Virus record (IMG/VR): IMGVR_UViG_3300029841_000009
Location: 4,544-68,543 of that record
Direction: 5' to 3' (one strand)
DNA length: 64,000 nucleotides
Origin: a virus
Lineage: Duplodnaviria > Heunggongvirae > Uroviricota > Caudoviricetes
The position numbers and the translations under genes are program-made. The number at the start of each line of letters is the position of its first letter. Position 1 is the stretch's first letter. Positions 1 to 64,000 of this stretch are shown here, one piece after another. A model generated the notes under the pieces. The model had not been told where the DNA came from. It did no database searches and saw only the letters and a program-made list of their open reading frames with translations.

Positions 1-980
1 ATCCCCCAGTTATATGCTGCTCCGGTCAATATTTCTGAGCCGTACTTACCATACAGTTGATTTACATAGTCACTGGCAAGCATTTCATGCTGTTGTTCGT
101 CCGTAGGGTTGTATTCAACGCCACGTTTGGCCGCCAGTTCTTTCCCTGTGCCCGGCATTAACTGGTATTTCCCCTGGGCCCTCTCTCCAGAAGATGTTTT
201 CGGTCCTTCAAGAATACTACCATCAGGATTAAAGTGACGATCACCTGATTCAACAAGGCGTATGGCACGCATGTCCATGCCTCCAGAATCATTTTTCTGA
301 AACTGACCATTTAACCATCCTTCCGGGTTAGCAGCGGCATAATTCTTCGCCCGCATTTCTGTGGCACTGCGATCATCACTTTCTATTTCTTCCAGAATGC
401 GTTCTTGTGACCATCCCCTGGCTGCTCCATATCTGGCAATGGCTACCATTCTGGAATTTCTGGCTAAAGTGGCAGTTTGCGGGTCATTCCAGGCATCCGC
501 TTCATTTTGTATCCATAATTTTCTCGTTGCCTGATATTGCTCATCTTCATAGGCATTTGTCTGCCCTATCTCATGTCTGAGAACTCCAGTACTGAACTGA
601 ATTTTCTGTGTTCTGGCTTGTTGCAAAAACATATTTCTTGCTGCTTCATCAGTCAATGAAGCAGCTATTTCTTCCACATCCTGATCAAATCCAGATATGT
701 ACTCTTGCCCCTTACCAATCGCATTTTTGCCTTGTTGTGCATAAAAACCGGTTTGAGGGTTATAAAGACGTTCATTGCTGCGCTGATTAAGCTGAAGTAT
801 GGCATCCTGAGACAATGCAACATTCGCTTTCTGCCTGGCTTCACCATATGCCACCGCATACTGATCTGCGACATTCGCCAGCACCTGACCTGCTTGAGGA
901 ACATCGAAGATCTGAAAACCACCGGTTTGCACACCACGACTTTGCACCTGGCGTCCGGATGTAGTAGGAACAACAGGCAT
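1..980 (-). CDS. Internal virion / ejection protein with lytic-transglycosylase-like motif (N-terminal part; gene runs off the left edge)
   Basis: Manual translation from ATG at 980 (overlaps the TGA of the upstream gene as TGATG) gives an uninterrupted frame to position 1: MPVVPTTSGRQ...GKYQLMPGTGKELAAKRGVEYNPTDEQQHEMLASDYVNQLYGKYGSEILTGAAYNWG. Not in the ORF track because no stop lies inside the window. Follows gp13/gp14-like genes as in T7. Confidence 0.55.
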   Translation of the reverse strand, partial: MPVVPTTSGRQVQSRGVQTGGFQIFDVPQAGQVLANVADQYAVAYGEARQKANVALSQDAILQLNQRSNERLYNPQTGFYAQQGKNAIGKGQEYISGFDQDVEEIAASLTDEAARNMFLQQARTQKIQFSTGVLRHEIGQTNAYEDEQYQATRKLWIQNEADAWNDPQTATLARNSRMVAIARYGAARGWSQERILEEIESDDRSATEMRAKNYAAANPEGWLNGQFQKNDSGGMDMRAIRLVESGDRHFNPDGSILEGPKTSSGERAQGKYQLMPGTGKELAAKRGVEYNPTDEQQHEMLASDYVNQLYGKYGSEILTGAAYNWG

Positions 981-1546
981 CAGTAACCTCCTATTTTGAA
1001 TCGGGAGTCAGAATTCATAAAACCTGAGTTAGATAACATTGGCGTGTTTCCTTGCTTACTAATCGGATTGATACTTCCGCTACCCAACTTATATGCACCG
1101 TATGCTTTTAGTGGTGCCGTTAACAAAGTGCTGGTCATCGATGATTTAGCAGCCGACTGAGCAGCAGCCCCCTGTGCCTGAGCATTCATTCCCTGAACCT
1201 GATACCCATATGCCTCACGCTGAGCATTATTCACTGTCGTTAACGCATCAAGAGTGCCGAACTGAGCATTATCCGCAAAAACGTCAAGAGCTGTTCCGCT
1301 ACTTAATTCCGCACCGGTAGCCCCCATAGTGGCCGCCGCAGTGCCTGAGCGTTGACGCATTTCACGACGACGCTGATCCGCTTCAATATTCCCACGATTG
1401 ATTGAATCCTGTGCCTGAGCTTCAGCAATTTCAGCATTCCGATCAGCTATGGCTGACTGGTATTTTGCCTGCTTGCTCTGGCTGTACATTGACGCGGCTG
1501 TGGATGCCACTGTGACGGCAACCAAAGCGATGGCTGGGTTACACAT
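980..1546 (-). CDS. Internal virion protein (T7 gp14-like position), Ala/Gln-rich
   Basis: 188-aa ORF tightly coupled to neighbours in the tubular-protein operon; size and position match T7 gp14. Confidence 0.45.
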   Translation of the reverse strand: MCNPAIALVAVTVASTAASMYSQSKQAKYQSAIADRNAEIAEAQAQDSINRGNIEADQRRREMRQRSGTAAATMGATGAELSSGTALDVFADNAQFGTLDALTTVNNAQREAYGYQVQGMNAQAQGAAAQSAAKSSMTSTLLTAPLKAYGAYKLGSGSINPISKQGNTPMLSNSGFMNSDSRFKIGGY

Positions 1547-2010
1547 TATTTTCTCTCCATGTGAAATCTGTGGAAATTAAGACCAAGAGCACCATAAGGC
1601 GCGGCTTCTTCAAGCCTGAATCCAAGCCAGTGCAGCCATGCTTTGGCAACATGGTTTCGCTCGTCGACATAGTTTTCCAGGCGCGGATAAACTGCCAGCA
1701 TCTGCTGCAATACAGGGCGGCAGTGGCGAAGAAATGTCTTCTGATATTTTTCGATACGGCTGGTTCCGACCAGCCAGGGCGTACCATTGCCACCGATCAT
1801 TGACGCCGGAGATACGCCAAACATGGTTACCAGTTCTCCGTTCGCGAACCCTGACCAGGCCATAGTCGCAGTGCGCAGACCAACACGCAGCGCATCTTTG
1901 GTAGTCATCAGCGATACCGCATACAGTTCGTCAATATCAGCCTGACGAACATCCGGCAAAATCATCTGAAGATGCTCTTCGGTTGCGGGAATAATTTGAA
2001 CATCGATCAT
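1546..2010 (-). CDS. Internal virion protein (T7 gp13-like position)
   Basis: 154-aa ORF directly downstream of the tubular B gene, sharing its stop/start junction. Confidence 0.4.
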   Translation of the reverse strand: MIDVQIIPATEEHLQMILPDVRQADIDELYAVSLMTTKDALRVGLRTATMAWSGFANGELVTMFGVSPASMIGGNGTPWLVGTSRIEKYQKTFLRHCRPVLQQMLAVYPRLENYVDERNHVAKAWLHWLGFRLEEAAPYGALGLNFHRFHMERK

Positions 2011-4481
2011 CAGAATCCCCCAACAGTAAGGCGAGGAATAACGGCAAGAACAGACAGCGGCAACGGATCAAGCTGACGGATTTTTACACGTCCGTTTTTG
2101 CCCCAGTTACTGTCCAGTTTCACTTCTACTTTTCCGGTAGCATCATCAACAGGATCATCGTAGAACTCGAATTCACGCTGTGGATATTCGTACCATTTAC
2201 CGCCGGGCGTAGTCGCCCAGATGCCGCGACTGGCATTCACAACCAGAGTAACGGACGGGATCACCTGTTTTTTGTCCAGCAGCGTTTCCTGTCCGTTAAT
2301 GTTGATATCCAGTGTTTCGAATTCAGCAGTTATTGGCAGGCCGATGTGCACTACAGCCCCCGGTGATTCCAGCGTGACGGCACCTCCGGAAACCACTTTC
2401 TGTGGTTCCACGTTCGCATCAGAGAGAATGTTTACGGTCTGGCCTTCAAGATGAGACAGGCCTCCAAATGTCCGGCGCGCCATCTGCCAGTTCGTGGTGG
2501 CCACATTCCTGAGGGATGGCGGGACGTTCCTGTTAGCACGAACCACTACAGCGGTATTGCTGGTTACAGAAATAATGTCGCAACGTAATTCTTTTGACAC
2601 CTCATCGCCAGTATCAGGATCAGTTCCGGTATAAGGGAACTGTAGTTGCGCGCCGACATCACTACTGGTGAAGTACGCACCACCAGAAACACTGATTGTA
2701 TATTCCGCGCGGTAATCCCATTCGCCAGAACCACCAGTGATGATCATCGTTCTGTCAGACGTATTTCTTCCATCATAGCTAAGGCCAGAATCAACAAAGA
2801 AAGCATCTTCATCGCTGGTAAATAAACGGCTGGACAGTCGCTCGATGTATCTCACTGTTTGCCCGTTAACGGTTCGGTTAACGACGAAATACACCGCATC
2901 TTCATTGCCTTCGCTGATACTGCATGTGCTTTCATATTTTCCGGTACTGGATTGTGGTGCCCATGCAAAAACCTGCTGATCACGCAAATAGGTCATCACC
3001 AGTAATTTACCGTCATCACGGATGCAGAAGGCGCTGGAGTAAGGGACTATTGAGAAGCACCAGTCAACAATGCTGTGCTTCTGAAAAAGATGATTGGCAA
3101 GGATAGTAAGGTCGTTCCCCTGATAGCCGTCAACATCGAATGAGTAGGCCAGATCACGGACAACACTGCCTTTCTCCTGGACGAACAGAGCAATATTCGC
3201 CACGGCAATTGGTGGGACATTGCTCGAGCCATTTGATCCCTGAGAGCTGAATGCAAATGATGATGGGGTAAGCACTTTGTTCTGGTCGCCAGTGATGACG
3301 TACTCACCTCCGGAAGTCAGCGCCACCAGCGAACCAACATCAATCAGGTGGCGGATCTCATTAACCTGACGCCCGGCATAGGTGTAGATAATTCTGTCGT
3401 CATCCTGCGTAGGATTGCTTTTGCCAAAATCCTTATAATCCCCGGTACGGCTGGCCCAGATAGTCTGAGGAAACGCAGTCGATGCGGCGAAGTAAAGACG
3501 TTGTTGATAATAAACAACAGTGCCAGGATAACCATTAACACTGTTCCAGGCATATTTAGCCCATTTATAGCTGGCATTATCCTCGCCAACTACCTGCGAA
3601 GGGATATAGGAAATCACCTCGGCAGTTGCAGTAGTTCCATTTGCAGCAGAGATACGGGCAATGCCAAAACCACTGTGCAGATACTCCCACTCAATGCCGG
3701 TATCATCATCACCGGATCCGCCCCAGCCATCCCATGATGTGCCTTCTGTATGCGAAGGGCGCAAAGTGCCTGTTTTGCCTACTGTAACGGCGCGATAGTA
3801 GTTACTGTCTGCACGGCGAATATCGCCAATTGACGTACTCTTACTGGTTTCCCATACCGGCACAGAATCCACTGCAGGCTGTTCCAGATAGAACAATTTG
3901 CCTACCTGCTCCGCGCCAAAAATAGAGGCGCTTGCCGTTAACGTAATTGTCCCGGTGCTGGCGCTGGCATAAACCGTCACTGACTCGTCAATATTGATAT
4001 CTTCAAATGGTCCGTTCTTCGTTACCACATCAACCAGTTGCCAGTTGTCATGCGCATAGCGACGCAACTCTTTCGGCGGGTATGCCGGATGAACAAGCGT
4101 AAGCACGTCGGCGCTTTGCGTGAATTTAATTCGGAACAGATCGGCTTCAGTATATGGCGTGGCAATTTCATAAATAACATTGCTGCTGTTCAGCACCAAC
4201 GCACCATCTTTGATAACGCGCATGTACTGGTGTCCGAACTCCAGAGCATAGGTCTGAACCGTCGAGAACTGGAACGGGATCAGGCGGCATTTCCGATTTG
4301 GGTATTTGGCGGCACCGACAAAACGCGTACCTGGTCGATTCTCAACGCCGCCATACTGCCGCACGATAAAGTTATCGCACTTGCGCAATGCCACCTGGTA
4401 CTTCGCCATGTCAATACGCCCGTACAACGACGGTCCAATCTCACCACCGGCAAAGCTGGGCTGGATCCAACTGATAGCCAT
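2010..4481 (-). CDS. Tail tubular protein B-like (T7 gp12-like)
   Basis: 823 aa; N-terminus MAISWIQPSFAGGEIGPSLYGR resembles the gp12 N-terminal pattern; follows the tubular A gene. Confidence 0.55.
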   Translation of the reverse strand: MAISWIQPSFAGGEIGPSLYGRIDMAKYQVALRKCDNFIVRQYGGVENRPGTRFVGAAKYPNRKCRLIPFQFSTVQTYALEFGHQYMRVIKDGALVLNSSNVIYEIATPYTEADLFRIKFTQSADVLTLVHPAYPPKELRRYAHDNWQLVDVVTKNGPFEDINIDESVTVYASASTGTITLTASASIFGAEQVGKLFYLEQPAVDSVPVWETSKSTSIGDIRRADSNYYRAVTVGKTGTLRPSHTEGTSWDGWGGSGDDDTGIEWEYLHSGFGIARISAANGTTATAEVISYIPSQVVGEDNASYKWAKYAWNSVNGYPGTVVYYQQRLYFAASTAFPQTIWASRTGDYKDFGKSNPTQDDDRIIYTYAGRQVNEIRHLIDVGSLVALTSGGEYVITGDQNKVLTPSSFAFSSQGSNGSSNVPPIAVANIALFVQEKGSVVRDLAYSFDVDGYQGNDLTILANHLFQKHSIVDWCFSIVPYSSAFCIRDDGKLLVMTYLRDQQVFAWAPQSSTGKYESTCSISEGNEDAVYFVVNRTVNGQTVRYIERLSSRLFTSDEDAFFVDSGLSYDGRNTSDRTMIITGGSGEWDYRAEYTISVSGGAYFTSSDVGAQLQFPYTGTDPDTGDEVSKELRCDIISVTSNTAVVVRANRNVPPSLRNVATTNWQMARRTFGGLSHLEGQTVNILSDANVEPQKVVSGGAVTLESPGAVVHIGLPITAEFETLDININGQETLLDKKQVIPSVTLVVNASRGIWATTPGGKWYEYPQREFEFYDDPVDDATGKVEVKLDSNWGKNGRVKIRQLDPLPLSVLAVIPRLTVGGF

Positions 4482-5086
4482 CAGGACAACCTCGCAATGG
4501 TAAACTCGTCAACCGGTGGCTGTGGTTCCTGTGATTCATTCTGGCTATGCGAGCCAGCACTAAGAATCACGCGATTGTACATATTGAGAGCAAATGTACC
4601 GAGATCCGCATTCCCAGTCAGCGCCATGTTAATGGCTGCCGCAAGACGCCAGGCCAGCGCCTCCATAAAAATGGCATCAAACATGTTTACATCTGAAACG
4701 CGAGAGACATACTTGAGCCATGCCTGCGGCTGGTCTGTGTAGATCAATTTTCCTGTTCCGTTGGTGTCTGCACCAACTTCGTACTGAACGCGCATTGCTG
4801 CTGTTGGATTGCGTACACCAGGAAGCATAATTTCAGTAATGCGCAGACAATCTGACGGGTACTGGTACGCATATTCCCAGTCAGGCGGTGGATTGCTCGT
4901 ATCTGCAAGCGCCACGCGTTTGGTAGCAAAGTTCCAGTCAAAATCAGAAAGCACAGCATCACGGCAGGCCTCAAAGTGCAGCGAACATTCCCCCGCTTCC
5001 TTGCTGGCTTCCGTCAGGCTGTTAATGCTGCGGCTGTTGCCAATATTGGACAGCGCACGATTGCAGATCTCTACTACAGAGGCCAT
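4481..5086 (-). CDS. Tail tubular protein A-like / head-tail adaptor (T7 gp11-like)
   Basis: 201 aa; N-terminal pattern ...ALSNIG...W.F resembles gp11-type adaptors; size and order fit. Confidence 0.55.
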   Translation of the reverse strand: MASVVEICNRALSNIGNSRSINSLTEASKEAGECSLHFEACRDAVLSDFDWNFATKRVALADTSNPPPDWEYAYQYPSDCLRITEIMLPGVRNPTAAMRVQYEVGADTNGTGKLIYTDQPQAWLKYVSRVSDVNMFDAIFMEALAWRLAAAINMALTGNADLGTFALNMYNRVILSAGSHSQNESQEPQPPVDEFTIARLS

Positions 5087-5142
5087 AAGTTTCTATACTC
5101 CTGCAATAAAGGGGCCGAAGCCCCTTGTCTGATTCGCGAGGC

Positions 5143-5487
5143 TTACACGCCCAGTTCTTTACGCTTATCTGCGATCTTCTCGCGTAGCGTTTCGGCTTTG
5201 GCGTTATGGTGTGGCTTCTCGTTAAAGAGCAATTCGTACTCTTCACGGAGCTTATCCAGTTCACCATCATCTGACACATCGTTGATGATTTTGGTGCTGG
5301 TTGCTGCCATTGACACCTTTCCTGCAACTTTTGCTTTTGCCTGTCTGGCTGCATCGTTAACAGGTTCCAGTGCGCTACCAGGCTCACCTTCGTATTCGAT
5401 TTCTGCCCCCTCCGGCCACAGAGTGTTATGGATATGAGAGAGGCGCAGAACGCGGTATCTTGGTTTCTCACCTGACATCGATATCAC
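5143..5487 (-). CDS. Hypothetical protein in virion module
   Basis: 114-aa ORF between capsid-associated genes and tubular A; charged C-terminus. Confidence 0.35.
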   Translation of the reverse strand: MISMSGEKPRYRVLRLSHIHNTLWPEGAEIEYEGEPGSALEPVNDAARQAKAKVAGKVSMAATSTKIINDVSDDGELDKLREEYELLFNEKPHHNAKAETLREKIADKRKELGV

Positions 5488-5488
5488 C

Positions 5489-5926
5489 TTAACCAGTTAC
5501 TTTTGAGCGGATCGGGTACGGCGTATTGGCATCAACATCCAGACTGATACCCGCAGTGAATTTGCCAGCCGTTAGTGGGCCAGTTGCGACGGAGTAGTTA
5601 ACACGCAGATATCGCTGAACACCGGCAGGCACCTTTGCAGAAACAACTCGTTTACCTGCTGTCAGGGCGGTCTTTGCCAGTGCGCCACTATCATAAATAG
5701 TGGTCCATGAGCTGTTATTCTCACTCGTCTGCAACTGGATGTTTACAGTTGCATCACCGCTTGCCGCGGCGGCTGCGTTAACCAGCGCCCAAAACTCAAG
5801 CGGGTAACCCACGCCGATATCACGACGTTTTCCGTCAATTGGACCGAGATCGATTACGTCAGTAGAAGCCGCGGTATTCGTAACCGCCTGAGCTTCGGAG
5901 AACATCAACAGTTTGTCGGTGATCAT
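5489..5926 (-). CDS. Hypothetical capsid-associated protein (possible decoration / minor capsid)
   Basis: 145-aa Ala/Thr/Gly-rich ORF immediately downstream of the major capsid gene. Confidence 0.35.
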   Translation of the reverse strand: MITDKLLMFSEAQAVTNTAASTDVIDLGPIDGKRRDIGVGYPLEFWALVNAAAAASGDATVNIQLQTSENNSSWTTIYDSGALAKTALTAGKRVVSAKVPAGVQRYLRVNYSVATGPLTAGKFTAGISLDVDANTPYPIRSKVTG

Positions 5927-5977
5927 CTTCTTTCTCCATTAGTGGGTCTGTTACGACCCACAGGTTAATAACAGGCG

Positions 5978-6970
5978 TTACACCACGCGGGCTTCTGTTT
6001 CCAGAAGCGCATCAGTTTCACGGATTGGTACACCACGGAATGAAGTCCACCACTCGCCTTCAGTCTCTTTTACGCTGATAGCCAGAGATGTTTTCTCCAG
6101 AGATTGCAGATCAAGAGCCTGGCCTACAGTGCGGTTCATGTAGAACACCGGGCGGCCCATGCCACGGTTTGGAATGCGATGTAGTGCTTTAACCATCAAC
6201 TTCGCAATATTTGCGGCAGAGGATGGTTCTGAAATATTGCTGACATCGATGTTTGCAATGCGAACAACATAACGCCAGTCACGCAGAGCAAGTCCGTTAT
6301 CCCATTTGTAATGGGTGCGATAGCCTTCGTACTTGCCGCCATTAGCATCTTCCAGTGTCACCTGGCCTTTATCTTCCATCTGGATGCCAGCCTTCTGCCC
6401 TTTCGGGAAGATGCCATGCACGGTGTTTTCGCCCCACACCACTAACCAGATTGAGGTGTTATCTGTACCCGTGCCACCAGCATCAATGATGTTCTGAGCA
6501 TTACCCGCAGACAGGCTGGAATAGCGGGAGGACAGTCCCATAAACTGCTGAGGGTTAACGCTGGAATCACCATAAAACAGCGTCTGCGCCATCTGCTGAT
6601 TCATCGCTTCAATAAATGCGCGGTCTTCAGACAGGCGGAATTCGGCGGTATTGCCGTTCAGATCAGCCAGTGACTTATCGACTTCCGCATAGGTTTCCAG
6701 CATGCCAACGGAATCGGTTACCTGCACTGTGGTTGATTTGCTTGGCTGTACGCCATAGTTCAGCAAACGCCAGGTAGCTGAAGGTAAACCAGAACGAATG
6801 GTGGTTCGGTGTCCGGTAGGAAGGTTCCCTTCGACAAAAGGCATATCCTGAAGGATCGGGTTAGTTTGACCGAGAAGCTCGATAATCTTATCGACTTTCC
6901 CGTTTGGATCGACGCGCTTACCCCAGTCAGCCAGCGTTAGCGCAGTTAAGCCTTTAACAGCCATTGTCAT
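5978..6970 (-). CDS. Major capsid protein
   Basis: 330 aa, between scaffold and tail genes; size and position of T7 gp10-like capsid protein. Confidence 0.65.
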   Translation of the reverse strand: MTMAVKGLTALTLADWGKRVDPNGKVDKIIELLGQTNPILQDMPFVEGNLPTGHRTTIRSGLPSATWRLLNYGVQPSKSTTVQVTDSVGMLETYAEVDKSLADLNGNTAEFRLSEDRAFIEAMNQQMAQTLFYGDSSVNPQQFMGLSSRYSSLSAGNAQNIIDAGGTGTDNTSIWLVVWGENTVHGIFPKGQKAGIQMEDKGQVTLEDANGGKYEGYRTHYKWDNGLALRDWRYVVRIANIDVSNISEPSSAANIAKLMVKALHRIPNRGMGRPVFYMNRTVGQALDLQSLEKTSLAISVKETEGEWWTSFRGVPIRETDALLETEARVV

Positions 6971-6978
6971 TTCCTCTC

Positions 6979-54906: not shown

Positions 54907-54922
54907 CAGCGCCTCCTACACA

Positions 54923-57564: not shown

Positions 57565-57581
57565 AACATCACCTGAAAATA

Positions 57582-57606
57582 AAAAGCCCCGCGACACCGC
57601 GAGGCT
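57582..57606 (-). terminator. Rho-independent terminator after the small membrane-peptide pair
   Basis: GCCTCGCG-gtgt-CGCGGGGC hairpin with T5 on the minus strand. Confidence 0.5.
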
Positions 57607-57607
57607 G

Positions 57608-57766
57608 TAAGAGTTACTTTCGATATAAATCAAGGCGCATTTGCTCCCGCTTAAGCCGAAAAGCCCTCTGCGCCACTAAGATGCGCCACAGGACACCAGC
57701 GATAACCACCAGCGAGATACAAAAACACACGGCCACAACCATCAGAAAAATGCCAACACCATTCAT
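57608..57766 (-). CDS. Small hydrophobic peptide (52 aa), toxin-like
   Basis: Manual translation: MNGVGIFLMVVAVCFCISLVVIAGVLWRILVAQRAFRLKREQMRLDLYRK; ATG overlaps the upstream stop (ATGA); below the ORF-track size cutoff. Confidence 0.4.
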
Positions 57767-57975
57767 GAAACTATCCATTCTTCAATGAATATCTCCAGTA
57801 ATGTCAAGAGATACGCCGTCCCCAGCGCGGTTCCTACCGATATAGCTAAGACAAACCTCAAAGATAACGAGGTGTCTTTCGCTTTTCTCCAGACGTAAGC
57901 GCCAGCTAGAAATACCAACAAATCTCTTATTGGAAGCGGAAACCAGAACAAATCACTCGGCATAAGCACGATCAT
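57763..57975 (-). CDS. Small membrane protein (70 aa, two hydrophobic segments)
   Basis: LLVFLAGAYVW and FVLAISVGTALGTAYLLTLL segments; coupled to the 52-aa peptide. Confidence 0.4.
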   Translation of the reverse strand: MIVLMPSDLFWFPLPIRDLLVFLAGAYVWRKAKDTSLSLRFVLAISVGTALGTAYLLTLLEIFIEEWIVS

Positions 57976-58252
57976 CTTCCGCTGCTGATTTACATGCCGC
58001 AGTTACTGATATATTGATAACCGGTGCGCTAATCGTGATGGACGACGCTGTCGGTTGACGCGATATAACTGAACGATGGCTATCAATGAAGTCCACAATC
58101 TCATTCAGGCACTCTTTAGCTGCCTCATCGTGACTTTTTCCGTATGCTTCATGGAGGACTTTCATCCTCATCATTGCTCCGTCACATATAGTCGAAAGCG
58201 CGTAAAGCACATCACTAACCGCCATTTCTTTTTTGGTGCTTGTCGAAGGCAT
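57953..58252 (-). CDS. Hypothetical protein
   Basis: 99-aa ORF. Confidence 0.35.
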   Translation of the reverse strand: MPSTSTKKEMAVSDVLYALSTICDGAMMRMKVLHEAYGKSHDEAAKECLNEIVDFIDSHRSVISRQPTASSITISAPVINISVTAACKSAAEDDRAYAE

Positions 58253-58326
58253 CCCATGTTCTCCTTTGTCTGGATGTAAAAAAGCCCCGGCAATTGCCGA
58301 GGCTCGTTGTTCGTTATCGTTACGGT

Positions 58327-58527
58327 TTAATGCTCGCGTCGTCCGGCGACAACTTCGGATTTGTATTTCAGGTCGCCCAGCAAGAATTGCAGTTTAAGCA
58401 TCTTTGCCGCCGTGTAGTTCCCTGATTCCACAACCTCTTTCATGAGGTCATAAACGGCCGCTACATCATCAGCCAGGAACTCTTTGCGTTGCTGCTCAGT
58501 CGCACGTTTGAAGGAAATACGCATCAC
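58327..58527 (-). CDS. Hypothetical protein
   Basis: 66-aa ORF coupled to the 58524 gene. Confidence 0.35.
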   Translation of the reverse strand: MMRISFKRATEQQRKEFLADDVAAVYDLMKEVVESGNYTAAKMLKLQFLLGDLKYKSEVVAGRREH

Positions 58528-58793
58528 TCATCATCTCCTGCCGCACATACAACCTCACAAAAAAAATCAGCAGAATGTTTCTCCTTGAACGAATGACGCT
58601 CAAAACCGCACTCAATATCAGGCGCAAAAACATCCACCACATACGGTCTTTCAGAATGTTTGTTTTCCCAACGATAAACCGTAGTGACGTTGAAATGTTT
58701 TAACGCTTCACGGAACTCAACGCTGCCAGTCAGGTTTTTTGAGGTCAGGTATTGCAGGAGGTTTTTTACTACTTCACGGTCTTGTACTTTCAT
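58524..58793 (-). CDS. Hypothetical protein driven by cassette copy 3
   Basis: 89-aa ORF immediately downstream of the conserved promoter-leader cassette. Confidence 0.45.
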   Translation of the reverse strand: MKVQDREVVKNLLQYLTSKNLTGSVEFREALKHFNVTTVYRWENKHSERPYVVDVFAPDIECGFERHSFKEKHSADFFCEVVCAAGDDE

Positions 58794-58911
58794 CGGGTTA
58801 TCTCCGGTTTAACCAGGGCGGGTATCGCTCGGTTTCGGGTATAACCATAGGAAATTTTTTCCCACCTGTAAAGCACTTTTATATAAATCTATAATTATAT
58901 AATTCTATACC
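58794..58911 (-). promoter_or_regulatory. Conserved promoter-leader cassette, copy 3
   Basis: -35 TTTACA (58872-58867), 17 bp, -10 TATGGT (58849-58844), leader with GGAG SD; AT-rich iteron 58877-58911. Confidence 0.5.
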
Positions 58912-59492
58912 ACTTGCCAGAGAGCATCATGCAACTGGATACTTCCATTGCACTGGTTGCCCCAGCCATGCCAACCATCAGGTAAATCACCGCGAGCAAA
59001 CAGCTCAATACGAGGAACATCACCTAACAGCCTTACCAGCTTGTCACGAACCACATCAGGCTTCCGAGAATGCTCCAGACGAGGCGATGTAAACGACTGA
59101 ATGATCCCCGCATCAAGGCGGGTCGGCAATTTGCCTTTTACCGCAAACAAGCAATCTTCACTGTTTGCACGAGTCATATGCCCCATCCCCATCACCAGCT
59201 TATCTGGTTGTCGGCTACCACATTTGTTCCATGTGAAGCCCTTCATGGTCATAAGCCTGAATCCCCATGCTTTCACCACCAGCAACGCTTCTTCTGGCTG
59301 AGTCGGAACCCACCACATGGCCAACAAACACGATTCAGGATTAGCAAGCTGCCAGACAGGAATACGAGCAATATCCTCAGCTTTCATCGTTGGATACTTA
59401 AAACCAGCTCCACGATTCCCATCCTTACACTTATCTTTGTATTCCCAGGGGGGATCTGCATAAATCAGATTAAACAATGCAATTGCCTCCAT
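58905..59492 (-). CDS. MT-A70 family DNA adenine methyltransferase
   Basis: N-terminal LIYADPPWEY (DPPW catalytic motif); 195 aa. Confidence 0.75.
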   Translation of the reverse strand: MEAIALFNLIYADPPWEYKDKCKDGNRGAGFKYPTMKAEDIARIPVWQLANPESCLLAMWWVPTQPEEALLVVKAWGFRLMTMKGFTWNKCGSRQPDKLVMGMGHMTRANSEDCLFAVKGKLPTRLDAGIIQSFTSPRLEHSRKPDVVRDKLVRLLGDVPRIELFARGDLPDGWHGWGNQCNGSIQLHDALWQVV

Positions 59493-59800
59493 GTTAGTTG
59501 TGCCTCCGGCGCTTATCTCCGGCAGTCATAACGCTGGCCAGCTCTACAGCAGACGCAACGAAAAGGGCACTAACCAGACTGATTAATGCCCTTGCCTGTT
59601 GTGTGCCGGATATCGCCCGACAACGCTGTTTTGGTAACACGGCTACAGTTCCGTGCCGCTCCAGCTTTTACCCCTTTGCGGATAACAGGCCCTGCCTGTA
59701 ACTTAGCCCCACGTTCGCCCGAAATGCGCACCAGGCACGCATAAAGATGAGCACGAAGGAAGTAACTCCACCGCGCTTATCTTTATGTGTGAGAGTGAAT

Positions 59801-59876
59801 TGGTGGCCCCTACCGGATTTGAACCGATGACCGTGCGATTATGAGTCGCCTGCTCTAACCACTGAGCTAAGGGGCC
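59801..59876 (-). tRNA. tRNA with CAU anticodon (tRNA-Ile2-like, or Met)
   Basis: Minus-strand read GGCCCCTTAGCTCAGTGGTTAGAGCAGGCGACTCATAATCGC...GGTTCAAATCC...GGGGCCACCA; close to my recollection of E. coli ileX in acceptor, D and anticodon arms. Confidence 0.8.
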
Positions 59877-59883
59877 ATATTTG

Positions 59884-59972
59884 ATCTGTTTGTCTGGTGT
59901 GGCGCCGCGCACGAAAATCCCAGCCAATAAATTCAGGATTTTTGGGCGCGGCGGCATATCAGACAAACATGG
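59884..59972. repeat. Large imperfect palindrome upstream of the tRNA
   Basis: Arms CTGTTTGTCTGG..GGCGCCGCGC and GCGCGGCGGC..CAGACAAACATGG around an inner inverted repeat GAAAATCC...GGATTTT. Confidence 0.45.
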
Positions 59973-60012
59973 TTGATGCGTGCGCCCATGAGAAAAGCGC
60001 ATAGAATGTTGT

Positions 60013-60047
60013 AACTATATATTTATATAATTATAGAAATATATATT
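60013..60047. repeat. AT-rich iteron downstream of the spanin genes
   Basis: AACTATATATTTATATAATTATAGAAATATATATT, same family as the parA-flanking iterons. Confidence 0.45.
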
Positions 60048-60255
60048 ACTTGGGGCAGTTGATTTCCCATGCCCTGTTATGAGCCAGAATATCTTTCTTT
60101 GTCTGGCGGTCCATAACATCGATATCGTGATCAGTCAGGTAGATGGGCTTTACCCAATCACAGGCGGTATCAACCACCACCGGGACGCTTCCACGACTCC
60201 CGCAGCTCGCGATCAACATCGTCATCAGCCATATGGTTAACACTCTGCTGTACAT
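60046..60255 (-). CDS. o-spanin (outer-membrane lipoprotein, Rz1-like), overlapped arrangement
   Basis: 69 aa with signal peptide and lipobox IASC; start lies inside the i-spanin gene in another frame. Confidence 0.55.
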   Translation of the reverse strand: MYSRVLTIWLMTMLIASCGSRGSVPVVVDTACDWVKPIYLTDHDIDVMDRQTKKDILAHNRAWEINCPK

Positions 60256-60448
60256 TGCCCACCTCTTTTGTCACTTCTATACGCCGCTCCGCAGTGGCTT
60301 TTACGGCGGCTGCATTCTCATTAATGCGCTGCTTTTCAGCTTCATCTTCGGCCTTTTCTCGCCCCTTCATACGACCAAAACCAAACGCACCGAATGCAAC
60401 CAATATAACGGTGCCGATAAATGACAAAACGGCTTTCAAACCAGTCAT
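60170..60448 (-). CDS. i-spanin (Rz-like) candidate
   Basis: 92 aa; N-terminal TM (AVLSFIGTVILVAFGAFGFG) then charged helical region; follows the endolysin. Confidence 0.5.
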   Translation of the reverse strand: MTGLKAVLSFIGTVILVAFGAFGFGRMKGREKAEDEAEKQRINENAAAVKATAERRIEVTKEVGNVQQSVNHMADDDVDRELRESWKRPGGG

Positions 60449-60987
60449 ACCACCACTCGCTCTTTCATCCAGCCATAGACAAACGACTCATTTGCTTCGC
60501 GTTTCTCCGCCAGGTCCAGATAACGGTCGCCCTGCGTACAGTTCAGGGCCGTCAGCATTACCCGTTCGCCGTCTTTTCCCCGATTCCCAAGATAAGCACG
60601 TAATGCCGCAATGGTGCGCGGGCCGATTCGCCCATCCACATCCATATCTGGATACAACTTCCCGCCACGGTTGAAAACATTCAGCCAACGTTGAAGCATC
60701 TTCGTAGCCACAGTCGGCCCCATGTTGACGCCCGTATCGCACATCTCAGCCGCAATATCAGGGGAAAATTGCGCCACCTGGTCAAAACGAGGCCCATACC
60801 AATAATCACCTTCAAGAATCATCAGAGCCTGTTCTCGCGTCAGATCTCGCATATCGCCACGGTATCCGTGAGCACGGGCAGTATTCTGAGTAATGCCCCA
60901 CTTTGTTGGGCCTCCCTTGTCGTCAGGGTGATCCACATAGCCGCCCTCTTTTCCAAGAATGCTGTTAAAAATCTCATCTTTGGTCAT
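60445..60987 (-). CDS. Endolysin (GH108-type lysozyme with peptidoglycan-binding domain)
   Basis: N-terminal ILGKEGGYVDHPDDKGGPTKWGIT motif characteristic of GH108 endolysins. Confidence 0.75.
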   Translation of the reverse strand: MTKDEIFNSILGKEGGYVDHPDDKGGPTKWGITQNTARAHGYRGDMRDLTREQALMILEGDYWYGPRFDQVAQFSPDIAAEMCDTGVNMGPTVATKMLQRWLNVFNRGGKLYPDMDVDGRIGPRTIAALRAYLGNRGKDGERVMLTALNCTQGDRYLDLAEKREANESFVYGWMKERVVV

Positions 60988-61270
60988 GATTAAACCCTAA
61001 TGCGTCAACTATCCGCGCCAGATTGCCCCTGAAATACAGAACAACGATGCAGATAATCAGATTTCCAATAACCACCAGCCAGTGGGATTCTTGATAAAGA
61101 CCGAACACATAACGGAAGGGAACATTGGCGTATACAATGACGTAGATATAAGCCAGAAAGGAAACAAATGGACGATGCCTGGAGTCTTTCCGTCGATAAA
61201 GCATCAGCGCCATTACTATTACTGTGCAAAGCACCGCATTAATCAGTGCTGACGGGTCACTGCTTACCAT
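60974..61270 (-). CDS. Membrane protein (antiholin/holin candidate; start at MVSSDPS)
   Basis: About 98 aa with 2-3 predicted TM helices, between the holin candidate and endolysin. Confidence 0.4.
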   Translation of the reverse strand: MVSSDPSALINAVLCTVIVMALMLYRRKDSRHRPFVSFLAYIYVIVYANVPFRYVFGLYQESHWLVVIGNLIICIVVLYFRGNLARIVDALGFNHDQR

Positions 61271-61652
61271 TTGAACCCCCTCCACGTAAGCGGGAAAGCA
61301 TTCCAAAGATGCTACCGAGATCCTGGCTGTTTACGAACGTGAGGATTTTAATGGTCAATGCAGCCACAATAACCGCACCAAGCGCATCCAGAGGACGATC
61401 GTTGTAGCTGGTCCATTTGGCAAGAAATGAGCCAACTAACGGCGCTCCAATCACTCCAACAATGAACGATGTAAAGAAATAGCCAATCAGCTTGAGACGG
61501 CTAATATTCACCGCTGTAGCAACATAGAAAACAGCGCCAGCAAATGCCCCGAATACAACGCCGTAATCAATACCAGTTGCAATACCAAAAACGCTGGCAC
61601 CCATCAGGCCACCAGCAGCAACGGCCGTACCGGAAATTGGTTCTGCTGACAT
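61257..61652 (-). CDS. Holin candidate (start at MSAEPISG)
   Basis: About 131 aa, multiple Gly/Ala-rich TM helices and charged C-terminus; first gene of the lysis cassette with GAGGA SD. Confidence 0.45.
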   Translation of the reverse strand: MSAEPISGTAVAAGGLMGASVFGIATGIDYGVVFGAFAGAVFYVATAVNISRLKLIGYFFTSFIVGVIGAPLVGSFLAKWTSYNDRPLDALGAVIVAALTIKILTFVNSQDLGSIFGMLSRLRGGGSNGKQ

Positions 61653-61665
61653 TGAAATCCTCGTT

Positions 61666-61694
61666 AAAAAAAAGCCCCGCCGAAAAGGCAGGGC
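61666..61694 (-). terminator. Rho-independent terminator immediately upstream of the lysis cassette (tR'-like)
   Basis: GCCCTGCC-ttttc-GGCGGGGC hairpin followed by T8 on the minus strand, ending about 12 nt before the holin SD. Confidence 0.55.
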
Positions 61695-61840
61695 TTCATA
61701 AAGCAACAAATTACGCGGTAATCGCTTAACGCAGTTTTACTACGTTAAATGAAACACTACACCCAGTTACCACCTAAAACAAGGTTTCTTCATAAAAAAA
61801 CCTTCAAAATGTGGTTGATCGATCAATAAAAAAACAATAC

Positions 61841-62158
61841 TCACAGTAGTGCAGAAAAGAATAGCGGCTTAACTGCTTTCCTCACCTCACTAGCGTACAT
61901 CCCCGCAGCTATCTCAGTTGTGAACAAACGCCCTCCAACTAGCCATGCAACAGGTGCAGATGCCAGGGATGCCAGTGCAATTTCATCTGTAGCAAGCTCT
62001 CTTTCAAGATATTCACGAAATCCGGGGTTAATAGTTACCGTATCCAACATTCTCTGGCGCGCTTCCTTACGTTCACGAATATGGGCAATCAATTGCTCTT
62101 TGGTAAAAGTAGCCATATCACTTTCCTTTCCCATGAAGCATAGCCGCGCGGCAGGCAT
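61841..62158 (-). CDS. Hypothetical protein (probable start at MATFTKEQ, 62116)
   Basis: Contains the LASLASAPVAWL motif shared with the 62118 gene. Confidence 0.35.
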   Translation of the reverse strand: MPAARLCFMGKESDMATFTKEQLIAHIRERKEARQRMLDTVTINPGFREYLERELATDEIALASLASAPVAWLVGGRLFTTEIAAGMYASEVRKAVKPLFFSALL

Positions 62159-62492
62159 TCCAGCCTCTCACCTCTGCAATAGCGGCAACAGCATCAACCG
62201 CGTACATGCTAAGAGGATTAGGCATTGGTTTTTCTTCCGGTACTACTGGCACTGGAGGGGTGGCGTAGAGTGGAACTCCTCCCCCTCCACCAGAAAATTC
62301 ATTGCGAGCGTTATACTCACGACCATCTGCGTCATCACGCATCCACGCCACCGGTTCTGCTTCCAGCGATGCAAGTGCAATTCGTGCCAGTTCTTCCGCT
62401 TCTTCTGCTGGCAGTACAACGTTGCTATCAGGTCCGTATGTTTCGCGCCACTGCTTGATTGTCAGCAGTCGCTCTTTGGTAATAGTGATCAT
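62118..62492 (-). CDS. Hypothetical protein
   Basis: 124-aa ORF with LASLEAEPVAWM motif. Confidence 0.35.
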   Translation of the reverse strand: MITITKERLLTIKQWRETYGPDSNVVLPAEEAEELARIALASLEAEPVAWMRDDADGREYNARNEFSGGGGGVPLYATPPVPVVPEEKPMPNPLSMYAVDAVAAIAEVRGWNACRAAMLHGKGK

Positions 62493-62848
62493 GCCGTATC
62501 CCCTTCTTGATATTTACCGTACCACCAACCATCAGCATTTTTTTCCAGCTCGATGAAAGCTTTTTTATGTCCTGAAGGTATAACCACATCCCCAAACTTT
62601 TTAGTTACTGAGAATGTCCCTCTGCTTGCACCAGACATCTTTGCACCCTTTTCATCCGAGGTTGGCATCACCCTGATCTGCCTGTTTTCCTCATCCAACT
62701 CAACGAAAATAAATCGACTGTTCGATCTGACATCAACTCCGATATAGCACTGCACAGATCCTGATTTTGAATATCTAACGGATATTCCTGCCGTGTCACG
62801 CTTGCGACCTCTGCCACCAGTTATGATTGATACAAAAGCCATACTCAT
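62489..62848 (-). CDS. Hypothetical protein
   Basis: 119-aa ORF coupled to neighbours. Confidence 0.35.
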   Translation of the reverse strand: MSMAFVSIITGGRGRKRDTAGISVRYSKSGSVQCYIGVDVRSNSRFIFVELDEENRQIRVMPTSDEKGAKMSGASRGTFSVTKKFGDVVIPSGHKKAFIELEKNADGWWYGKYQEGDTA

Positions 62849-63531
62849 TCCCCCTTCACGCCAATGCCAGCGGCGCGCTCGGCTTTACTTTGTTCCCAAA
62901 ACCACTTGTGAAGCTCCATAAGCTTTTCGTCAATCGGTGCATATTTGCGATTAAAGTAGGCCTGAGCATCTTTCTCAGATTCGTCCGGCAATTCGCCTGG
63001 GCCAAACAGTGTGTTATAAATCCATGCCAGTCCGCTCTTAGCGTCGCCAGTTGCCTGCCATTCGATAATCGCAGCCTGCATGACCAGAATGTTTTTCCCG
63101 ATTAACAGGTCCAGTTCTTTGTACCGGTTGCGGATGTATGCATTCTCGCTTTGTAATTTTGCGTTGCGCTTCTCTGCGGCTTCCAGCTCAACACGCAGCT
63201 TCCCTACCGTTAGCGCAATTTCCTCGTTCTCCTGGTCGCGTGATTTGATGTATTGCTGGTTTCTTTCCCGTTCATCCAGCAGCGCCTGCACTACTTCAGG
63301 GTTGAAAGCTGCGATATAACGAGCGTTGTTCTCTGCGTTTTTCTGTTCGTCGAATCCTGGCCAGTCGACAATATCTCCGTGATGATTATCACCTGGTGTG
63401 TGTACGGCGTACGTGCCGTATTTGCCCGGCGAAATAAATGCGACCCATTCACCCTGTGTTGCCTTTTCTGCCGCATCACGCAGTGCCTGATAGTCAATTT
63501 TGCTCATTGTGCCTCCTCGATTTCGTCCCAT
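62845..63531 (-). CDS. Ead/Ea22-like protein (probable start at MSKIDYQALRDAAEKA, 63507)
   Basis: Shares MS.I.YQALR.AAEKA and the coiled-coil core LLDERERNQQYIKSRDQENEEIALTVGKLRVELEAAE with 14253-14900. Confidence 0.5.
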   Translation of the reverse strand: MGRNRGGTMSKIDYQALRDAAEKATQGEWVAFISPGKYGTYAVHTPGDNHHGDIVDWPGFDEQKNAENNARYIAAFNPEVVQALLDERERNQQYIKSRDQENEEIALTVGKLRVELEAAEKRNAKLQSENAYIRNRYKELDLLIGKNILVMQAAIIEWQATGDAKSGLAWIYNTLFGPGELPDESEKDAQAYFNRKYAPIDEKLMELHKWFWEQSKAERAAGIGVKGE

Positions 63532-63737
63532 TCCACCCAGGCATTCTCTCCATCAGCATCGATTTCACCTTTGTGACCGCATTTGGAACAGACAGCCTCA
63601 TCACCCGCCCACAAAGAATCTTTGGTTACCGACCATCCTGTTACCTTGGCTTTGCCGTGCTGGCACTTAGGGCAATCATCAAGCCATTCGACTTCGACTG
63701 TTGAAGGACCAAATCCATGTTCAGTTCGGATGCTCAT
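63504..63737 (-). CDS. Small zinc-ribbon-like protein (start at MSIRTEHGF, 63737)
   Basis: Two CxxC pairs (CPKCQ, CSKCG); ATG overlaps the stop of the upstream Ead-like gene. Confidence 0.4.
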   Translation of the reverse strand: MSIRTEHGFGPSTVEVEWLDDCPKCQHGKAKVTGWSVTKDSLWAGDEAVCSKCGHKGEIDADGENAWVEWDEIEEAQ

Positions 63738-64000
63738 AACTGAACTCCTTTGCGAATCTGTTCCGCCCATTCTTCAAGGGATTTCTCCGCATATTCACCG
63801 GACAGGCCATCAATCGGGTACGGTTCATTAGCCAACTCTTCTTTCGCTGACAGAATCATGCGCGTAACGTCGAAAACTTCACGCAAAGACTTATTGATAA
63901 ATCCGTGATTGAACGCAGCAGCAAGACGGCTGGCGGTATAGTTAATCCCCTCGTTGCGTGCTTCCGCACGAATTTCAGCCAGAAAAGCATCGGTAGCTGG
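63734..64000 (-). CDS. Ead/Ea22-like protein, C-terminal part (gene runs off the right edge)
   Basis: Near-identical at DNA level to the 3' end of 15138-15764; stop TGA at 63734-63736. Confidence 0.5.
   Translation of the reverse strand, partial: PATDAFLAEIRAEARNEGINYTASRLAAAFNHGFINKSLREVFDVTRMILSAKEELANEPYPIDGLSGEYAEKSLEEWAEQIRKGVQL

Follow-up and report, generated by a model that had tools for sequence, protein, structure and literature searches.

A Uetakevirus prophage fragment and one unit of a known phage-plasmid joined within ead/Ea22 genes in a 64-kb viral sequence

How do two sets of virion genes that cannot serve the same particle come to lie on one stretch of phage DNA? The 64-kb stretch analyzed here (the window, to whose positions all coordinates refer) had been described, in a sequence-only reading, as two complete virion modules around a plasmid replicon. 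Two non-homologous virion and packaging sets are indeed present by Pfam and annotation, with the podovirus set on the minus strand, and we agree that a single virion would be unable to use both. Judged by sequence comparison, the window consists of two already known, unrelated temperate phages lying end to end: part of a phiV10-like podovirus prophage, hereafter U (Uetakevirus prophage part, 1 to ~14.6 kb), and one full copy of a plasmid-prophage, hereafter P (48,596-bp phage-plasmid unit). Both elements are near-identical to phages and plasmids in the databases, and the finding as it stands is ordinary.

The podovirus part is a late-region fragment

U has 97-98% nucleotide identity to TL-2011b, O157 typing phage 9 and ZX5, and 99.5% identity to a native Uetakevirus prophage contig (L014), which matches window 13000-14597 with zero mismatches. 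Its features are as follows.

1..980, minus strand: 5' part of a large internal virion protein gene (TL-2011b gp37 homologue, lytic transglycosylase type), off the left edge
980..13184, minus strand: packaging and virion genes (identity to Uetakevirus phages, Pfam), comprising the following genes to TerS, apart from the tRNA gene
980-2010, minus strand: internal virion proteins
2010-4481 and 4481-5086, minus strand: tail proteins
5978-6970, minus strand: capsid (GP7, Pfam)
6979-7680, minus strand: protease/scaffold
7970-9649, minus strand: portal (Head-tail_con, PF12236)
10298-10374, plus strand: tRNA-Arg(TCT)
11035-12510, minus strand: TerL
12507-13184, minus strand: TerS (Terminase_2, Pfam)
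13225..14597, minus strand: U-type small genes upstream of TerS (L014 match, Pfam)
13225-13578, minus strand: 112/117-aa gene
13649-14026, minus strand: DUF551 gene (Pfam)
14253-14900, minus strand: 215-aa Ead_Ea22 gene (Pfam), C-terminal part of U type and N-terminal part of lambdoid type

The alignment to TL-2011b begins at window position 1, equivalent to record position 25089, within gp37 (24110-26827). The podovirus set, previously called complete, is therefore cut by the left window edge inside this gene, and the truncation of one module outside the window that had been named in advance as counting against the two-module picture is found for this set. Beyond that edge, outside the window, lie the remainder of gp37 as well as gp38 and the tailspike, lysis genes and integrase of U; in the window, U has no tailspike, lysis genes, integrase, repressor or early/replication genes. 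U as seen is a fragment, containing the late region only, about half of a prophage. Nucleotide identity, synteny, the GP7 capsid and the T7-family portal place it among the Uetakeviruses, though as a fragment and not as a complete genome. The former label 'T7-like' does not hold, in that the closest relatives are all classified as Uetakevirus and only the portal Pfam family is of T7 type. An identical DUF551 protein adjoins TerS in U-type prophages. The lack of podovirus replication genes in view is explained by the same cut, since native prophages have them directly upstream of the ead genes, where plasmid-type sequence takes over in the window; the repressor of native Uetakevirus prophages is also located in that early block.

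The plasmid genes belong to the myovirus element

P comprises bases 15,405-63,744 plus one copy of a repeat, D1 (described below), which is exactly one 48,596-bp unit.

15405..20733, minus strand: leftward early operon, including a DUF1064 gene on the same strand (99.9-100% identity to free-plasmid contigs L055 and L060; Pfam; transferred annotation)
15721-16428, minus strand: 235-aa gene
17146-18213, minus strand: DUF3560 gene
19093-19497, minus strand: Ref-type RecA-dependent nuclease
20908..31466: immunity and plasmid-maintenance region (Pfam; 98-99% identity to plasmids and vB_YpM_39)
20908-21564, plus strand: CI-like repressor (HTH/S24-like)
22167-22835, plus strand: ParA (ParA/CbiA hits)
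22879-23127, plus strand: 82-aa ORF
24445-25626, plus strand: ORF6N/Rha antirepressor
28377-28676, minus strand: HigA-like HTH antitoxin
28676-29029, minus strand: HigB-like Gp49 toxin
30486-31466, minus strand: IncFII RepA (PF02387, E=1.3e-43)
31830..53629, minus strand: virion genes (Pfam; RefSeq annotation of L003 and L006; 98.7% identity to vB_YpM_39 over 34416-54043), including a 186-aa candidate TerS on the same strand
32405-35209, minus strand: tail fibre
43317-44780, minus strand: sheath
46290-47333, minus strand: capsid E
47747-48835, minus strand: ClpP-type protease
48804-50378, minus strand: lambda-family portal
50626-52482, minus strand: GpA-type TerL
54044..61709, minus strand: genes from ParB-like to holins, the holins reaching 61709
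54187-56919, minus strand: ParB-like and methyltransferase genes
58905-59492, minus strand: MT-A70 methylase
59801-59876: tRNA(CAT)
60445-60987, minus strand: GH108 endolysin
61841..64000, minus strand: P's own ead module (105-aa, 124-aa and 119-aa genes and the 3' part of the plasmid's own 198-aa ead gene)
62845-63531, minus strand: Ead_Ea22 gene of this module (Pfam)
63504-63737, minus strand: 77-aa gene

The virion block runs in the order tail-fibre assembly, tail fibre, baseplate, tape measure, tube, sheath, head-tail genes, capsid E, ClpP-type protease, lambda-family portal, DUF6148, GpA terminase, candidate TerS and a ParB/Srx-like protein. Pfam confirmed the plasmid and immunity genes noted previously (IncFII RepA, ParA, a HigBA-type pair and an HTH/S24-like repressor); the 82-aa ORF, once called 'ParG-like', had no Pfam match. 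This plasmid core belongs to the myovirus element alone and is not shared with U. Because the plasmid genes sit inside the 48.6-kb myovirus unit, the picture of two virion modules around one replicon, or of two phages sharing a maintenance core, falls away.

The comparison with known phage-plasmids that the sequence-only reading had proposed showed P to be colinear over its full length with Yersinia phage vB_YpM_39 and many ~48.5-kb E. coli plasmids, at 98-99.9% identity. P is complete on the circular vB_YpM_39 record, which starts at the equivalent of window 54043/54044, and on circular plasmids; its relatives are on deposit both in this form and as isolated phage. The ead module of P is 99.93% identical to the free plasmid L055 over 59817-64000 and 99.6% identical to pCE-O153H30-B over 63175-64000, and L055 joins 59817-64000 directly to 15149-20928 (99.86%) through a single D1 copy. 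Free-P contigs measure 48,520-48,719 bp, compared with a D1 spacing of 48,596 bp in the window. No integrase was found in the window in any transferred annotation, as had been noted, and none is listed in the RefSeq annotations of near-identical plasmids, some members carrying only a Hin-type invertase. In lysogeny, P would replicate by its IncFII-type RepA, partition by ParA, be stabilized by the HigBA-type pair and be silenced by the CI-like repressor; on induction it would form a lambda-like head with a P2-like contractile tail. The pSLy3/SSU5 group was considered as the family of P and rejected (PMC7969092), and we found no published family name for the ~48.6-kb IncFII-RepA phage-plasmid lineage.

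These relationships bear on whether the window could be one hybrid phage or replicon, with a single maintenance core and two alternative virion modules. In favour of this is only that the two modules are co-linear and share an orientation in the window. Conversely, P is a complete unit, identical to plasmids of 48.5 kb that exist autonomously, while U is cut by the window and matches ordinary integrated prophages identically; a genome of at least 64 kb exceeds both parental sizes (39-44 kb and 48.6 kb), and no such record occurs in the three annotated collections. This explanation is extremely improbable and close to refuted.

The two elements meet within interchangeable ead/Ea22 genes

U and P meet inside ead/Ea22 genes common to P, Uetakeviruses and lambdoid prophages. 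Mismatch maps and alignment resolve that the sequence type changes twice near the junction, each time within a block of exact identity.

14424-14597: switch block 1, 174 bp, identical in the Uetakevirus type (L014) and the lambdoid type (L019/L023/L005)
14598..15267, minus strand: lambdoid-type ead module (N-terminal part of the 215-aa Ead, DUF7446, and the 3' part of the 198-aa Ead_Ea22 gene with prophage-type SNPs)
about 14887-15141, minus strand: DUF7446 gene, 84 aa
15138..15734, minus strand: hybrid 198-aa Ead_Ea22 gene, N-terminal part of plasmid type and C-terminal part of prophage type (alignment, Pfam)
15149-15404: D1 copy 1, 256 bp
15268-15398: switch block 2, 131 bp, within D1 copy 1, identical in the prophage type and the plasmid type
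63745-64000: D1 copy 2, 256 bp, cut by the window end

Window 14424-15398 has zero mismatches to native lambdoid prophages at torS, L019 and L023, the first mismatches being at 15399 and 15405. Exact DUF7446, DUF551 and 77-aa proteins are likewise common to P, Uetakevirus and lambdoid prophages. The two D1 copies are direct repeats, 97% identical, which flank exactly one P unit. In copy 1 the SNPs are of prophage type as far as 15267, and the bases are of plasmid type from 15399 on; the left junction is a clean in-frame hybrid gene. Copy 2 is of plasmid type throughout its visible 256 nt, at all seven SNPs and also at 63995, where all aligned prophage-type references have G; the window ends 6 nt before the types diverge.

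This arrangement is what a real cointegrate might leave. The circle of P would have entered a resident or infecting Uetakevirus genome that already had a lambdoid-type ead module, by a single homologous crossover at 15268-15398, in the shared 3' part of the 198-aa ead gene. The product would be U-late / P / U-early, chromosomal or as an 88-kb circle, and may coexist with free P in culture. Consistent with such an event are the direct repeat around one unit, the in-frame hybrid gene, the Ref nuclease of P with the RecET of Uetakeviruses, and the evident nature of the ead region as an exchange point, with its shared exact proteins, a P-type SNP patch on one contig (L004) and a second prophage-to-P join on another (L005, below). 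Integration of P1-like phage-plasmids beside resident prophages (Pfeifer & Rocha 2024, PMC10879196) and the discussion of phage-plasmid/phage co-integrates (bioRxiv 10.1101/2025.08.29.673033) lend further support. The difficulty lies in copy 2: the reciprocal junction is out of view, and the visible copy, of P type including 63995, where a reciprocal product formed with any of the aligned prophage alleles would have G, is not what a simple crossover would be expected to yield. The two switches within 1 kb also need explaining.

A pure P allele in copy 2 would be accounted for if P were a tandem multimer, or a mixture of free and integrated forms, such that copy 2 is an internal P-P joint and the reciprocal junction lies at least one unit further on. 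Contigs with more than one copy of P exist: a 265-kb NCTC contig in which the copies are spaced 97 kb apart, and pN10e, which is internally duplicated. Against this explanation, multimeric plasmid contigs often arise in assembly; nothing in the window requires a multimer, and it calls for one event more than the cointegrate. We regard it as improbable.

Records that span the join

Across three annotated collections, the U-P junction occurs in no phage, plasmid or complete E. coli record. Among the matches listed for 5,426 complete E. coli genomes, the sizeable matches to the P core are all on plasmid records of 47-57 kb, and chromosomal matches cover at most 2%. Of the 1,914 blocks of the collection in which the exact RepA is indexed, none has a contig of more than 200 kb. 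These three results argue against the cointegrate. The hybrid 215-aa Ead protein has no record anywhere in the searched collection, and the hybrid 198-aa Ead protein has an exact match on only one other contig, L005, whose flanks are identical to the window over 6.5 kb save two SNPs. In L005 the same ead gene links P with a lambdoid prophage, and the switch point is a different one. Three further contigs from drafts or metagenomes (L029, L052 and L053) connect P with different prophages through tail-fibre genes.

Taken as a whole, the window contig is probably an assembly path that joins separate molecules at a shared short gene segment, and not one real molecule; the identities, the switch points and the unit length are shown by the comparisons, and from them we infer that U and P are physically separate. 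U, perhaps together with a lambdoid prophage, would reside in the chromosome with P as a free plasmid, and the contig would be a 'lariat' path through short exact repeats. All three kinds of element have interchangeable ead/Ea22, DUF7446 and DUF551 genes at the early/late operon boundary. The path would pass from U type to lambdoid type at 14424-14597 and on to P type at 15268-15398, then run once round the P circle and end inside the plasmid's own copy of the shared segment.

Several observations sit uneasily with an assembly path. The window is contiguous as given, and its layout, in which direct repeats enclose one complete P unit, is exactly that of a Campbell-type insertion. Typical reads or insert sizes exceed repeats of 131-174 bp, which paired-end assembly should therefore normally get right. 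The assembler would have to err twice within 1 kb, unless the U variant natively has the lambdoid-type module. An equivalent prophage-to-P junction is present in another assembly (L005), and such joints could be real DNA. Both elements have recombination functions, Ref in P and RecE/RecT in Uetakeviruses. Simple k-mer predictions would end the contig at 63990, 63994 or 64003, compared with the observed 64000.

The phage-plasmid cointegrate proposed from the sequence alone thus keeps its geometry, in the direct repeats flanking the unit and the hybrid first junction. It falls short of demonstration because the window shows only a single hybrid junction, copy 2 has the plasmid allele throughout and the same junction is in no independently closed genome or plasmid. 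We consider it a minority possibility.

Implications

There is perhaps some chance, though a rather low one, that the join is physical and that a widespread plasmid-prophage recombined into a Uetakevirus genome at the ead/Ea22 early/late operon boundary. Transcription from the early operon of P would then continue into the packaging and virion genes of the podovirus, and that from the early operon of the podovirus into the lysis and virion genes of the myovirus. A second exchange or a resolution elsewhere could give new chimeras, such as a plasmid-maintained podovirus, and the shared ead genes would act as a module-swapping linker between phage families of different lifestyles. A second phage-plasmid family would thereby offer a concrete case in which homologous cointegration with a resident prophage took place at the early-late boundary, and a plausible route for swapping whole virion or lifestyle modules. 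The observations also carry a caution. Plasmid-prophages and chromosomal prophages have short exact segments in common (ead/Ea22 and tail-fibre genes), and draft contigs repeatedly cross between the two, which can give the appearance of integrated or chimeric elements.

Comparison with known systems

Window 1-13,564 has the same gene order as the Uetakeviruses phiV10, TL-2011b, O157 typing phages 9/10, vB_EcoP_ZX5 and phiv142-3, with 95-98% identity, and native Uetakevirus prophage contigs carry the match on to 14,597. Upstream of ead, native prophages have a 186/187-aa gene, DUF1064 and P/DnaT replication genes, whereas the window continues there as P.

P has full-length synteny with Yersinia phages vB_YpM_39/41/44 (OR545053-55) and with the E. 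coli plasmids pCE-O153H30-B (NZ_CP172338.1), NZ_CP020518.1, p98224-contig_1 and pN10e and scaffold KE136924.1. It belongs to this ~48.6-kb IncFII-RepA lineage by colinearity that closes into one unit, by RepA and ParA, and by full virion, packaging and lysis sets. The lineage has the same RepA, ParA, HigBA, CI-like repressor, Ref, DUF3560, lysis and ParB-like genes, together with the same GpA terminase, lambda-type head, P2-type tail and unit length. Several members carry a Hin invertase and an alternative fibre cassette, whereas the tail-fibre region of the window has neither, and the antirepressor region varies within the lineage. Unlike lineage members, the unit appears in the window in linear form and adjoins podovirus DNA.

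A real join would be the same kind of event as in the P1-like cases, where shared phage genes lodge a plasmid-prophage inside or beside a resident prophage. It would differ in family and in having its junction in an ead/Ea22 gene at the early-late boundary, and only one junction is visible here. The closest parallel to the junction itself is the mosaic ead/Ea22-DUF551 ('accessory') region of lambdoid phages: the window junction falls in the same Ead_Ea22, DUF7446 and DUF551 genes, and thousands of lambdoid and P22-like prophage contexts contain exact copies of the junction proteins. Unlike in plain lambdoid mosaics, the gene pool here is common also to a podovirus genus and a plasmid-prophage.

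Two known elements make up the window

BLAST against annotated phage records divided the window into two unrelated parts, with nearly all genes on the minus strand. The first of these, positions 1–13,564, showed 97–98% identity to the Uetakevirus podoviruses TL-2011b, O157 typing phages 9 and 10, vB_EcoP_ZX5, phiv142-3 and phiV10. Pfam searches and transferred annotation placed TerS, TerL, a T7-family portal, an epsilon15-type GP7 capsid, two tail proteins and internal virion proteins in this late region (U, 1 to ~14.6 kb), which also carries a tRNA-Arg. A sequence-only reading had proposed two complete virion modules, one T7-like and one with a lambda-like head and a P2/Mu-like contractile tail, around a plasmid replicon. 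The podovirus packaging and virion genes that it named are present, but the set is not complete: position 1 falls in the homologue of TL-2011b gp37, and the left edge of the window cuts off the rest of that homologue together with the next large virion protein, the tailspike, the lysis cassette and the integrase. The label 'T7-like' is too loose, every close relative being classed as Uetakevirus. That reading also saw no podovirus replication genes, which is correct for the window. Native prophages of this kind run from the repressor through DnaT, a lambda-P-like protein, DUF1064, a 186/187-aa gene, Ead_Ea22 (with or without DUF7446), DUF551 and a 112-aa gene to TerS. The replication genes are out of view because they would lie immediately upstream of where the window turns into the second element. 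U is an ordinary Uetakevirus prophage fragment.

The second element (P, a circular phage-plasmid with myovirus genes) matched, over ~16–62 kb, Yersinia phages vB_YpM_39/41/44 (49 kb, circular) and partial 'vB_EcoM' records at 98–99%, as well as dozens of 47–52-kb circular, non-mobilizable E. coli plasmids. The alignment to the circular vB_YpM_39 record is colinear, window 16196–54043 corresponding to record 39154–1 and window 54044–61843 to record 49027–41133. From the annotation of near-identical plasmids, P is one coherent element.

Gene content of P (RefSeq annotation of near-identical plasmids and Pfam)
Regulation and early region: CI-like repressor; leftward early operon with Ref nuclease, DUF1064 and DUF3560; ead/Ea22 module
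Lysis and other genes: holins, GH108 endolysin, tRNA, MT-A70 methylase, three ParB/Srx-like proteins
Head: GpA terminase, lambda-family portal, ClpP-type protease, capsid E
Tail: sheath, tube, tape measure, baseplate, tail fibre
Maintenance: IncFII RepA, HigB-like toxin with HTH antitoxin, antirepressors, ParA

The extent of P is given by a 256-nt direct repeat (D1), a segment of the ead/Ea22 gene, whose copies at 15149–15404 and 63745–64000 are 97% identical and spaced 48,596 bp apart. In the complete plasmid pCE-O153H30-B, one D1 copy links window 63175–64000 straight to 15405–16419. The same direct closure is found in a free-plasmid scaffold of the P lineage, KE136924.1 (48,520 bp; 59817–64000 at 99.93% and 15149–20928 at 99.86%), and further free contigs of the lineage measure 48,586 to 48,719 bp. 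The D1 spacing and these closures therefore indicate that the window holds precisely one unit of a known phage-plasmid, which belongs to a well-sampled 48.6-kb lineage. The replicon does not stand between two virion modules but is simply part of the P unit. We regard it as at least close to certain that two known, independent elements are present, with the plasmid core in P only and U truncated. Both a physically shared maintenance core and a dual-virion phage are rejected, and a true dual-virion replicon is extremely improbable.

Fine structure of the U–P junction

The junction was compared base by base with native references. In this comparison, the window shows no mismatch to L014, a native Uetakevirus prophage, up to 14597, and over 14424–15398 it agrees at every base with the ead module of native lambdoid prophages at torS (L019, L023); plasmid-type sequence starts at 15399. 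Two type switches thus fall within 1 kb, each in a block of perfect identity, of 174 bp (14424–14597) and 131 bp (15268–15398), and each with an in-frame hybrid Ead_Ea22 gene. The 215-aa hybrid Ead protein had no exact counterpart among the 153 billion gene positions of the collection searched, and an exact copy of the 198-aa hybrid was present on one other contig only (L005).

The D1 copies differ at seven sites, all in the first 119 nt, the last 137 nt being identical. Copy 1 carries prophage-type bases at all seven, and copy 2 carries plasmid-type bases at the seven and at 63995 (A in plasmids, G in all aligned prophage-type alleles). The window end is equivalent to 15404, 1 nt short of the next informative SNP and 6 nt short of full divergence of the plasmid and prophage types; a randomly placed cut would land within 10 nt of the divergence point with a probability of ~3e-4. 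As a contig end, it fits neither the k=127 or k=141 predictions nor the end of the exact block (63990, 63994 and 64003 predicted). Continuation after base 64000 with AGTTTCGCTGTGGTGTAGGG... would signify plasmid closure, and a prophage-type run into the N-terminus of the 166–187-aa gene, DUF1064 and P/DnaT would signify the reciprocal junction.

At face value, the geometry is exactly that of circular P inserted into U by a single crossover (Campbell type) within the ead segment they share, with a clean in-frame hybrid as the junction gene, as expected of a genuine U/P cointegrate, possibly alongside free P. The ead region is clearly a site of natural exchange. Identical DUF7446, DUF551 and 77-aa proteins are common to P, Uetakeviruses and lambdoid/P22-like prophages, and both U and P encode recombination functions. 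Furthermore, paired reads normally resolve repeats of 131–174 bp, and an assembly path would need two wrong turns, unless the U variant natively has a lambdoid-type module. Against a cointegrate, only one hybrid junction is in view, the visible D1 copy 2 is a plain plasmid allele and not the reciprocal product, and the decisive bases lie just beyond the window end. On this and the survey evidence below, we consider a cointegrate unlikely, and tandem or mixed forms of P more unlikely by far; U and P are probably separate molecules that an assembly path connected by way of exact repeats.

Survey of the junction and of P in other records

Exact 56–68-nt junction patterns had no match in viral contigs or genome contigs, and their only match in metagenome contigs was a related 37-kb contig (L004, ERZ827488 NODE-1016; 1.9 kb of sequence compared). 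The U–P junction was spanned by none of 50,697 phage records, 72,556 plasmids and 5,426 complete E. coli genomes. Among the matches listed for complete genomes, all those with a coverage above 8% of the P core (20.8–31.7 kb) sit on 47–57-kb plasmid records, and chromosomal matches among those listed for complete E. coli genomes cover at most 2%. Exact RepA occurred in 1,914 blocks of the collection, with no contig above 200 kb among them. These results favour separate molecules, although few integrated copies would be expected anyway among the ~77 complete genomes that carry P. The 77-aa gene was considered as a route to the reciprocal junction and set aside as too widespread (indexed in 4,786 blocks).

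Draft and metagenome contigs recurrently link P to different prophages at shared genes, but in the complete genomes listed P is a plasmid, which again counts against a cointegrate. The closest case is L005 (GCA_958321215.1, CATTCA010000026.1, 75.5 kb), in which a lambdoid prophage at torS is joined to P at the 198-aa ead gene in the order int, AntA, DUF551, Ead242, DUF7446, then the P early operon and ParA. Over 14424–20924 (6.5 kb), this contig and the window are identical except at 15399 and 15405. Common descent of the two junctions was rejected in spite of the identical flanks: because the switch points differ, they are read as two events at a single short repeat, and such recurrence could come equally well from path ambiguity or from recombination. 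In L004, a plasmid-type SNP patch lies in a lambdoid-type ead module, at the equivalent of 15222–15267 within the shared segment. It is a point in favour of a cointegrate, and represents either a gene-conversion tract between P and prophage or a metagenome chimera.

The tail-fibre and fibre-assembly genes of P are linked to lambda-type tail genes (GpJ, Lom, stf) in JBFYFD010000022.1, to a P2-like sheath and tube in a 187-kb metagenome scaffold (L052) and to chromosomal pot/pepT/phoQ, in the e14 neighbourhood, in JBMGQY010000071.1. The tail-fibre genes are therefore a second shared joining segment, whether in the contigs or in the elements themselves. P early, ParA and lysis regions occur in two large contigs, JANSGM010000001.1 (413 kb) and JACFDQ010000006.1 (324 kb), which are possible true integrations; the 6.65-Mb chromosome CP050217.1 has just a fragment of the P early operon.

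The plasmid pN10e (NZ_JBUBMA010000006.1, 57.4 kb), considered as a U+P plasmid, turned out to be P with an internal 12.5-kb tandem duplication from protease to baseplate J. The NCTC contig UGFE01000007.1 (265 kb) has P copies 97 kb apart, and beyond the ead gene of one copy lie unrelated genes (S24 peptidase, Phd/Fic). Both are likely multimer or assembly effects.

Sequence features of P

An AT-rich 24-nt motif, TTATATAAATCTATAATTATATAA, has eight sites (≤3 mismatches; none expected by chance), all confined to P. Several are intergenic, with two just upstream and one just downstream of parA, and the motif may serve as an operator, a promoter or a centromere-like site.

Positions of repeats and of the methylase in P
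17090, 18299, 22054, 22127, 22843, 28300, 58879 and 60023: TTATATAAATCTATAATTATATAA sites
18209–18327, 28211–28329 and 58790–58908: three copies of a 119-nt repeat containing TTATATAAATCTATAATTATATAA
58905–59492: MT-A70 methylase

G+C content is 38–42% in the head and tail genes (35000–50000) versus 45–51% in the early, maintenance and lysis regions of P and ~51% in U, and the contrast suggests a mosaic origin of P. The tail-fibre region (31679–35209) is unlike that of vB_YpM_39 and several plasmids. It encodes a single 934-aa fibre and a 191-aa assembly protein, without a Hin-type invertase or an alternative fibre cassette, and ~1.4 kb inside the fibre gene (~33.0–34.5 kb) has ~93% identity to tail-fibre genes of P2-like phages. 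Upstream of the terminase lie three proteins with ParB/Srx-N domains (53039–56919), one fused to a methyltransferase domain (54923–56302). The first base of the vB_YpM_39 record corresponds to window 54043/54044, possibly a genome end or cos region. The tRNA at 59801–59876 (anticodon CAT), called tRNA-Met by ARAGORN versus tRNA-Ile in the RefSeq annotation of plasmids, is probably a lysidine-dependent tRNA-Ile2 carried by P.

Consequences and relation to known phage-plasmids

U and P are laid out alike, with early operon, ead/Ea22 accessory block and late genes on one strand. If the junction were real, a crossover in the ead block would put the P early operon upstream of the U terminase and virion genes and the U early operon upstream of the P lysis and virion genes, and resolution at another shared segment could yield module-swapped phages. 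A physical cointegrate at this early–late boundary is unproven and the less likely reading, and is the sole aspect of potential interest. That phage-plasmids can cointegrate with phages or prophages is already recognised (PMC10879196; bioRxiv 10.1101/2025.08.29.673033), and P1-like phage-plasmids reported integrated beside prophages (PMC10879196) lend the cointegrate some plausibility. Since the P lineage is known, U is an ordinary fragment and the event type is recognised, the window is already explained by known elements.

No published family name for the 48.6-kb lineage of P was found in the literature. The source of the name vB_EcoM-613R2 is a naming paper without a family definition, and vB_YpM_HQ103 is an unrelated 32-kb Peduovirus. 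The name pSLy3 was considered for P and discarded: the literature puts pSLy3 in the SSU5 supergroup, a group of ~100 kb (PMC7969092), of which P is not a member.
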